A DNA stretch of 64,000 bases from an uncultured Gemmatimonadales bacterium (GTDB taxonomy: Bacteria; Gemmatimonadota; Gemmatimonadetes; Gemmatimonadales; GWC2-71-9). The notes beneath the pieces are model-generated. The model was not told where the DNA came from, did not search any database, and saw only the letters and a program-made list of their open reading frames with translations. A program made the position numbers and the translations under genes. Positions 33,192 through 33,880 of this stretch are shown here, one piece after another. Each line of letters opens with the position of its first letter. The first letter of the stretch is position 1. The DNA is taken from positions 770,518 through 834,517 of the forward strand of contig CAVOMQ010000001.1 in the NCBI GenBank assembly GCA_963697065.1. The letters run 5' to 3'.

Positions 33192-33731
33192 GTTGGCGCC
33201 GGATCGCGCCGGGAGCACCTCTTGCGGCGCCGGTCGCAGGTACCCTGATCGAGGGGCGGTGTTCCTCCATTGCGACCGTTGCCGCGGCGACGTGCCCCCG
33301 TCGTGACCCCGCGTGCCCCCCGGCGTAACGTTCGTCAACGCAGTGCTCGTCAGCCCGAACGGAGACTTCCGCTGAAGACCGGTAATGGCCTGATTTGTCG
33401 TTGGCGCCGGATCGCGACGGGAGCACCTCTTGCGGCGCCGGTCGCAGGCACCCGGATCGAGGGGCGATGTTCCTCCAATGCGACCGTTGCCGCTGCGACG
33501 CGCCCCCGTCGTGACCCCGCGTGCCCCCCGGCGTAACGTTCGTCAACGCAGTGCTCGTCACACCGAACGGAGATTTCCGCTGAAGACCGGTAATGGCCTG
33601 ATTTGTCGTTGGCGCCGGATCGCGACGGGAGCACCTCTTGCGGCGCCGGTCGCAGGCACCCGGATCGAGGGGCGATGTTCCTCCAATGCGACCGTTGCCG
33701 CGGCGACGTGCCCCCGTCGCGATCCGCTGCA
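33192..33731 (+). repeat. Tandem array (period exactly 208 bp; 2 full units plus a truncated third) of a long imperfect-palindrome element
   Basis: GTTGGCGCCGGATCGCG starts at 33192, 33400 and 33608. Each unit carries a ~115-nt hairpin core: CGACGGGAGCACCTCTTGCGGCGCCGGTCGCAGGCACC...TTCCTCCAATGCGACCGTTGCCGCGGCGACGTGCCCCCGTCG. Confidence 0.95.
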
Positions 33732-33765
33732 CCCCGGTTGAGCAGTCCTGATCTGGCGTCGACTC

Positions 33766-33880
33766 GGGGTCATGACGGGGGGACCTCGCCGCGCCGCCAA
33801 GGTCGCATTGGAGGAATGCCGCCATCCGACGTCGGTGCCTGCGACCTGCGGCGCAAGAGGTCTTCCCCCGTCGCGTTCGG
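33766..33880 (-). repeat. Inverted copy of the same palindromic element
   Basis: The reverse complement reads CGACGGGGGAAGACCTCTTGCGCCGCAGGTCGCAGGCACC...TTCCTCCAATGCGACCTTGGCGGCGCGGCGAGGTCCCCCCGTC. Confidence 0.9.

Follow-up and report, generated by a model that had tools for sequence, protein, structure and literature searches.

The subject of this analysis is a tandem array of palindromic sequences found in a stretch of 64,000 nucleotides from an uncultured Gemmatimonadales bacterium (contig CAVOMQ010000001.1 of assembly GCA_963697065.1, positions 770,518 to 834,517), which is referred to below as the window. The array occupies much of an intergenic gap of 1.1 kb and consists of 208-bp units followed by an inverted copy of their palindromic core. 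With a probability of roughly 0.7, we consider it to be made up of copies of a lineage-restricted, non-coding repeat, an imperfect palindrome of about 125 bp of the REPIN/ERIC/MITE kind, which would owe its present distribution to mobile spread and its present arrangement to local recombination. The original prediction, made from the sequence without database searches, offered two interpretations, an ERIC/MITE-like palindromic repeat or a tandem set of structured small-RNA genes. The first agrees well with what was found, namely an element that is multi-copy, intergenic, inserted in both orientations, non-coding, and present or absent between relatives. The second gained no positive support, there being no promoter or terminator consensus, no consistent orientation and no strand preference.

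The regularity of the array is clear. Tandem Repeats Finder reports a period of 208 with 2.6 copies and 95% matches over 33191-33737, while a repeat search of the window places the unit starts at 33182, 33390 and 33598, exactly 208 bp apart as predicted, with the tandem part of the array spanning 33182-33740. The first and second units are 94.98% identical over 199 nt, which corresponds to the ten or so differences that had been counted, and the homology of the third is lost after its core, at about 33737, so that it is indeed cut short. All the arm and shoulder sequences quoted in the prediction are indeed there. Three occurrences of the core 29-mer GGAGCACCTCTTGCGGCGCCGGTCGCAGG were counted, compared to none in 100 shuffles. 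Two 76-nt arms in inverted orientation (33627-33702 and 33792-33867) are 78% complementary. The inverted copy is therefore real, but it is not simply a flipped unit, since it belongs to a distinct subtype (type II, described below). A CRISPR array, with identical repeats of 24-48 nt and unique spacers, is rejected, in line with the prediction, because the array has a period of 208 nt and its "spacers" are repeated as well. The gap had also been described as gene-free; open reading frames (ORFs) called mechanically do cross it, but none is supported as a gene.

The listing of the array and its inverted copy was thus correct, but a fifth copy in the window had been overlooked. This solo copy lies between two minus-strand genes, one for a Ser/Thr kinase, with its stop codon at 48529, and one for a lipoprotein-like protein of 760 aa, with its start at 48264. 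The coordinates of all these features are collected in Table 1.

Table 1. Positions in the window of the repeat copies, their spacers and neighbouring features
Feature	Position	Strand	Evidence
123-nt palindrome, perfect 20-bp foot GGGGCCGGCACAGGGTCTC...	26006..26128	.	100% complementary arms; -92 kcal/mol
ABC-2 type transporter permease, 387 aa	31957..33120	+	Pfam ABC2_membrane_3, E = 1.4e-60; exact protein on L093
Short GC-rich hairpin GCGCGAGGTCAC-CCCG-GCGTGGCCTCGCGC	33136..33165	+	Directly after the permease gene
Copy u1, type I	33194..33319	+	Covariance model R1, 120.4 bits; 92.7% identity to L027:5582-5757
Spacer 1, relic leader	33320..33401	+	33295-33382 87.5% identical to L091:254-340
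Copy u2, type I	33402..33527	+	R1, 122.6 bits; 208 nt from u1
Spacer 2, second copy of relic leader	33528..33609	+	33503-33590 87.5% identical to L091:254-340
Copy u3, type I	33610..33735	+	R1, 131 bits; 33597-33873 92% identical to L027:5617-5893
Inverted copy, type II	33757..33886	-	R1, 118.1 bits; L091:156-262 at 96.3%, L027:5776-5893 at 92.4%
LPG_synthase_TM domain gene, 545 aa	34289..35926	+	Pfam E = 9.1e-19; exact protein on L094
Solo copy, type II-like	48369..48495	+	R1, 121.5 bits

The number of 2.6 copies is the number as assembled, and short-read contigs break inside the repeats. It could be argued on this basis that the tandem part is an artefact, a single element expanded by the assembler, and it is true that a single type I copy in the closest relative corresponds to three in the window. 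This is however scarcely credible. The first two units differ at about ten positions, and the inner variants of u1 (GGTACC and CCATTGC) are precisely those of the relative's only type I copy. Both flanks of the array are matched at 99.9-100% by short-read contigs of ERR11523645, L093 corresponding to 31598-33239 and L094 to 33787-37818. Moreover, L093 stops 2 nt before the first difference between u1 (GGTACC) and u2 and u3 (GGCACC), after an identical run of 31 nt. A break at exactly the point where the variants diverge is the expected behaviour of a de Bruijn graph, and implies that both variants are present in the reads. The array is thus probably not an assembly artefact.

The closest public relative of the window is the metagenome-assembled genome (MAG) "uncultured Gemmatimonadales bacterium MFD05502.bin.2.102", whose contig CAVWJI010000004.1 is syntenic with 28428-33232 (89% identity) and 33914-40817 (85-89%) of the window. 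A covariance model of the element, R1, identifies 13 copies in three related genomes. They come from the window, from the MAG (sequences L027, L091 and L076), from the JGI metagenome sequence Ga0187809_10010638 (L177), and from L187, a short-read contig of the window's own sample (ERR11523645) that carries two copies. Seven copies have therefore been seen in the source genome, five in the window and two on L187. In the other species and collections searched, no copy was found. A search of one genome for each of 185,579 species for the two-part motif GGTCGCAGGYAYC-N14-20-TTCCTCCAWTGC found it only in the MAG, in five copies on one contig, and an initial genome scan with a 17-mer gave about 90 loci, all of them chance matches except L027 and L076 on that same contig. 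The exact two-part motif has no match in the JGI metagenomes, and a looser scan of them gave eight loci, one of which, Ga0187809_10010638, is a true member. Plasmid and phage collections searched with BLAST, and viral contigs scanned for the motif, gave no match.

Nor does the array belong to any Rfam RNA family, as it falls below every gathering threshold. Over the whole window only a tRNA (17300-17372) passes these thresholds, and at E <= 1 the region 33000-34400 gives only spurious, sub-threshold matches to microRNA hairpins (28 bits, where the threshold is 168). The literature was also searched for palindromic intergenic repeats of Gemmatimonadota, with no relevant result, and to our knowledge no repeat family has been described for this phylum. 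These results are consistent with the predicted absence from described families. We conclude that this is a small, previously undescribed family restricted to a few uncultured Gemmatimonadales soil bacteria.

The most direct view of the element as a unit comes from sites that can be compared between genomes. The first is the interval between the kinase and lipoprotein-like genes, which is 264 nt long in the window, including the solo copy. The same interval is empty and only 156 nt long both in the MAG (L175) and in an independent assembly of short reads (L176), the missing part being exactly the hairpin and a short tail. Relative to both of these, the solo copy is a clean insertion of about 120 bp. 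In the JGI relative, L177, a variant copy is found at the same place.

The second site lies between convergent genes for a hydrolase and a DUF7790 protein, and has two, one or no copies depending on the genome. The source genome has two copies in opposite orientation (L187:2064-2187, minus, and 2261-2384, plus), the MAG has one (L076:1346-1470), and a third relative (L188 and L189) has none, with a gap of 31 nt whose edges are too diverged to set the boundaries of an insertion. Inspection by eye indicates that the single copy of L076 is composed of the left part of one copy and the right arm of the other, joined at TGCGACCGC. On the basis of the two sites, the element is a discrete unit, which is present or absent at orthologous intergenic positions of related genomes.

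The original prediction held that the core folds as a long hairpin, and the folding energies bear this out for both strands, with a minimum free energy of -80 kcal/mol (z = -3.9) for the plus strand and -90 kcal/mol (z = -7.0) for the minus strand. All of the copies fold as an imperfect hairpin of 110-125 nt within an element of about 125 bp. The ends of the element read GTC(A/G)CGACGGGG...CCCCGTCG(T/C)GAC, and the arms are complementary from the foot upwards, GGGGTCACGACGGGGG... pairing with ...CCCCCGTCGCGACCCC, so that the terminal inverted repeats are long enough for a MITE, which has at least 10-15 bp of them. Towards the apex there is an asymmetric and nearly invariant inner motif, GGTCGCAGGCACC, followed by exactly 17 variable nucleotides and then (G)TTCCTCCAATGCGACC. 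Its exceptions are single-base variants in u1 and in copy A of L027, and TTCCACCACTGC in L177, which has CCACC in place of CCUCC; MAG copies A, C and D finish the motif with TGCTCC instead of TGCGACC. Sub-palindromes resembling REP sequences are not evident in both arms; as read from the alignment, a local hairpin (CTTGCG-N8-CGCAGG) is possible in the left arm only.

The copies can be divided into subtypes. Type I comprises u1, u2 and u3 together with copy B of the MAG, while copies A, C and D of the MAG belong to type II along with the two remaining copies of the window, the inverted and the solo one. The copies of L076, L187 and L177 form a third and more divergent group. In the alignment of all 13 copies, 93% of the cells are paired and 13 of the 37 pairs are changed on both sides, values that are reached by none of 500 shuffles and that collapse in slid controls. 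The long outer helix is thus variable in sequence and yet stays paired. Since this alignment had itself been fitted to the model, and no more than three or four independent lineages are represented among the copies, the covariation makes a good but not an overwhelming case for maintenance of the hairpin itself. Covariation of the stems is not a coding pattern, and together with the small size of the element and the lack of a supported gene in the gap it marks the element as non-coding. The type II copy cannot credibly be read as translated (GGAGGAATG), given a spacing of just 2 nt and stems that covary.

Covarying stems around an asymmetric, nearly invariant motif are also what would be expected of a functional RNA, and the alternative that the hairpins are small RNAs, or structures of 3' untranslated regions or leaders, with the array as a tandem set, has to be considered. 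Such RNAs might for example be protein-binding decoys, or anti-Shine-Dalgarno regulators acting through the UUCCUCC loop. It fits this proposal that a tandem U.G wobble (CUCUUGCG versus CGCGGCGAG, columns 31/98 and 32/97) is conserved on the TTCCTCC strand, and that every copy lies in an intergenic region near gene ends that is likely to be transcribed. On the other hand, types I and II are oppositely oriented to their neighbours, so that no single strand is consistently co-transcribed: a transcript of type I copies would read UUCCUCC and one of type II copies GGAGGAA. The folding energies of the copies likewise favour neither strand consistently. No relevant Rfam match was obtained even at E <= 1, no sigma-70-like promoter or intrinsic terminator was found in the array (by a consensus scan that may not suit this phylum), the CCUCC motif has become CCACC in L177, and presence or absence at orthologous sites is not expected of a regulator that the cell needs. 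We therefore regard an RNA function as the basis of the array as unlikely. Within the preferred reading of a mobile repeat, a GC-rich hairpin that is co-transcribed with its neighbours would probably act, by analogy with REP and ERIC sequences (PMC3184786), as a barrier or stabiliser at 3' ends.

The origin of the array itself becomes clearer when the window is compared with the orthologous position of the MAG, which is about 4 kb long as against 1.1 kb in the window. In order, the MAG contains copy A (minus), a small ORF (ORF1), copy B (plus), copy C (minus), an island, copy D (minus) and a second small ORF (ORF2). The island (L027:5906-8000 and L091:1-155) is 2.25 kb long, has a GC content of 58% compared to 68% in its flanks, and lies between the direct copies C and D. 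It contains three ORFs on the opposite strand with no Pfam match, one of them with a glycine-rich C-terminus, and the window lacks it. The two small ORFs are paralogous to each other (39% identity, E = 3e-18), each having a start that resembles a signal peptide. ORF1 has weak, sub-threshold matches to glycine-zipper families of Pfam, while ORF2 has no homologue besides itself among 5.8 billion proteins. No such small ORF was found in the window by tblastn. Upstream of ORF2 the element is in opposite orientation, and an anti-Shine-Dalgarno or small-RNA regulator of the small ORFs was rejected as the principal explanation on this ground and because CCUCC is not conserved in L177.

The segments of the array can be traced to different parts of this locus. 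The single MAG copy B is matched at one end by u1 and its left flank and at the other by u3 and its right flank (92-93%), while the inverted copy is a hybrid, with the flank of copy C and the interior of copy D (96%). The segment of about 95 nt between the cores is repeated, as predicted, but it does not form part of the element. It is 87.5% identical to a stretch of L091 running from the end of copy D into ORF2 at L091:330, and it still holds a ribosome-binding site, GAACGGAG, followed by a start codon changed from ATG to CTG (CTGAAGACCGG, compared to ATGAAGATCGG in the relative). The spacer is thus the pseudogenised 5' leader of a small glycine-zipper gene, ribosome-binding site and initial codons included, and it is a gene that the relative has retained.

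The breakpoints of these rearrangements fall within elements, and the array is a recombination mosaic. We suggest that a module consisting of element, leader and small gene lost its gene, and that what remained, an element with a relic leader, was duplicated by unequal crossing-over between elements to generate the 208-bp array. The island between the direct copies C and D may have been lost in the window, or gained in the relative, by the same route of recombination.

Two further details of this region may be mentioned. The sequence ATGAAGACGTGA at 33907-33918 looks like another relic of a small-ORF start, fused to sequence from beyond the stop of the ORF, and a small perfect hairpin (CGATGGCCGCGG-atctc-CCGCGGCCATCG, 33923-33951) is found where synteny with the relative resumes (L091:738-765). 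In the third relative, MFD02416.bin.2.26, the orthologous permease gene is followed by a different family of palindromes with a similar G-rich foot, GGGGGCACGACGGGGCCTCT. There (L095:9160-9582) they form a nested array, in which a 79-nt unit of left arm plus loop and a 29-nt unit of right arm each occur three times, with the inner motif CCCAATACCACGG. This second family is also present, inverted, at L076:3615-3742.

The association with small genes raises the question of whether the hairpins could be recombination sites of a cassette system, comparable to the attC sites of integrons and shuffling genes for small secreted proteins and islands. Sites of the attC type are roughly 57-141 bp long, and the size and imperfect palindromic form of the element recall them. 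Two orphan small ORFs of the relative have elements next to them, as does its low-GC island, which lies between direct copies, and the 208-bp units of the window have no ORF. We nevertheless consider a cassette system very unlikely, and an integron attC site proper was rejected. The ends of the element lack the RYYYAAC and GTTRRRY motifs, copies within one array face both ways, ORF2 is not followed by a site, and single copies occur also at unrelated loci. No tyrosine recombinase (Phage_integrase) was found among some 55 ORFs of the window, nor does Phage_integrase appear in the Pfam marks of the genes called at the loci of the relatives.

Among described repeats the nearest in behaviour are the REPINs, which are mobilised by RAYT transposases in Pseudomonas and others. 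REPINs are extragenic hairpins of about 100 nt formed from two inverted arms, with compensatory changes and an asymmetric tail adjoining the hairpin; their subfamilies differ between close genomes, and they form ordered tandem clusters that include flanking sequence, with up to four units and more than 700 bp (PMC3116915). The present family resembles them in these respects. There are also differences. REPINs have conserved REP 16-mers near both ends, whereas the invariant motif here is internal and asymmetric, and the arms are not clearly REP-like; REPINs number tens to hundreds per genome, compared to the low copy number found here; and none of the scanned ORFs of the window matches RAYT or Y1_Tnp.

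The ERIC (or IRU) sequences of Enterobacteriaceae are almost the same size, at about 127 bp, and are co-transcribed (PMC3184786). They too are imperfect palindromes, lie in intergenic DNA near gene ends in either orientation, vary in occupancy between relatives, and are found in regions of genome plasticity. They differ in having no sequence similarity to the element, in a flanking TA duplication that is not seen here, and in belonging to another phylum, the GC content of the window being 68%. The ERIC1R and ERIC2 primer sequences have no match in the window within three mismatches.

Classical MITEs such as Correia, RUP, Nezha and Chunjie (PMC10969869, PMC11602168) are likewise small and non-coding, with inverted arms, multiple copies, insertion polymorphism and no transposase of their own. 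The element falls within their size range of 50-800 bp, is non-coding, has inverted arms and shows insertion polymorphism. However, it is one hairpin throughout, whereas a MITE has short terminal repeats around an unrelated core, and no parent insertion sequence with matching ends is known for it. Finally, the BIMEs, which are mosaics of REP sequences in E. coli, share the alternation of palindromic units downstream of genes and the association with recombination and rearrangement (PMC3184786), but the present units are three to four times longer. REP sequences are biased towards sites between convergent genes (PMC3184786), and the copies described here lie just downstream of genes or between convergent genes, in both orientations and with no consistent orientation relative to their neighbours.

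We propose that the copies spread via a hairpin intermediate, which would be handled in trans by an enzyme encoded at another place in the genome. The likeliest candidate would be a single-strand transposase of the RAYT or IS200/IS605 type, or else some other transposase. Once several copies were present at one locus, they would become substrates for homologous recombination, and thereby for local amplification and deletion.

Several observations weigh against this reading. No transposase, RAYT, integrase or reverse transcriptase was identified in Pfam scans of the ~55 ORFs of the 64-kb window. The copy number of the exact family is low, with seven copies in the source genome and five, all on one contig, in the whole representative MAG. 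GTCAC is found on either side of the solo copy, and the empty site has a single GTCGC, but since GTCAC also forms part of the end of the element, a 5-bp target-site duplication is only suggested. The one-copy state of the second orthologous site, being a recombinant of the two-copy state, appears to record a deletion and not an independent insertion. Lastly, an invariant inner loop within covarying outer stems is the reverse of the classical MITE pattern, in which the termini are conserved, and this could point to a function in RNA or in protein binding. It might be supposed that the element is a structured nucleic-acid module, made of RNA or single-stranded DNA, with a specific binding site in its invariant asymmetric inner loop (GGCACC ... 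UUCCUCCAAUGC). Such a module could serve as a mobile terminator or regulator of adjacent genes, or as the handle by which a new system in Gemmatimonadales recombines cassettes for small secreted proteins. We regard this as decidedly unlikely, and continue to prefer a mobile palindromic repeat reshaped by recombination.

The genes of the window are of an ordinary chromosomal kind by their Pfam matches, and include ABC transporters, kinases, ClpP and UPRTase among others. The array begins about 70 nt beyond the stop codon of the permease gene. The short hairpin that directly follows this gene is conserved in the relative, the flank around it being alignable to L027 at 81%. Since it lacks a T tract, it was not called by the terminator scan. 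Two putative endonuclease genes of the Uma2 family, at 17421-18254 (minus) and 37714-38424 (plus), are paralogues about 20 kb apart that cross-match at about 70% at the DNA level. The ORF at 35977-36549, which has only weak Pfam matches to coiled-coil or GvpK-like domains, contains internal tandem repeats in its DNA (36178-36526, with self-matches of 72-79% at offsets of 126-252 nt). The protein encoded at 42557-43501 (plus) matches the phycobilisome-linker domain PBS_linker_poly (E = 1.2e-7; 32.3 bits, cut-off 28.7), and the relative has this protein as well (L175:9478-10308).

Other long GC-rich intergenic hairpins of 110-180 nt, with different sequences, are common in these genomes, examples being those at 26006-26128, 33968-34107 and 51348-51468 of the window and several more in L188. 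The first lies between genes for a Ser/Thr kinase and a TetR protein and is not detected by R1; its foot resembles the G-rich foot of the two families, and it is possibly a distant member of the same superfamily. The second, a separate hairpin of 140 nt, precedes the LPG_synthase_TM gene; its 20-bp foot is perfect (CGCGGCACATTCGCAGTGTG / CACACTGCGAATGTGCCGCG), and it has no match in Rfam. It is almost unchanged at L091:783-918, where it is better conserved than the adjoining intergenic DNA, and could be a leader or regulatory RNA of that gene. The third forms part of a long imperfect palindrome (51342-51474) with the simple repeat GGGCTCTGGGCTCTGGGC, beside two divergent kinase genes. The third relative has comparable palindromes of simple repeats at L188:16631-16805 and 19866-20043.

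The family is new, but it is of a familiar kind, since its size, its hairpin, its compensatory changes and its tandem clusters with included flanks have already been described for REPINs and ERIC. It provides a worked case, with an alignment, a covariance model and two occupancy polymorphisms, and a view of one locus in three genomes in which repeats appear to have driven duplication, deletion and gene loss. In practical terms, such repeats break short-read assemblies of these soil bacteria and mark hot spots of rearrangement in MAGs. It is unusual for an invariant inner loop to be combined with stems that covary, and this leaves room for a function in the host.

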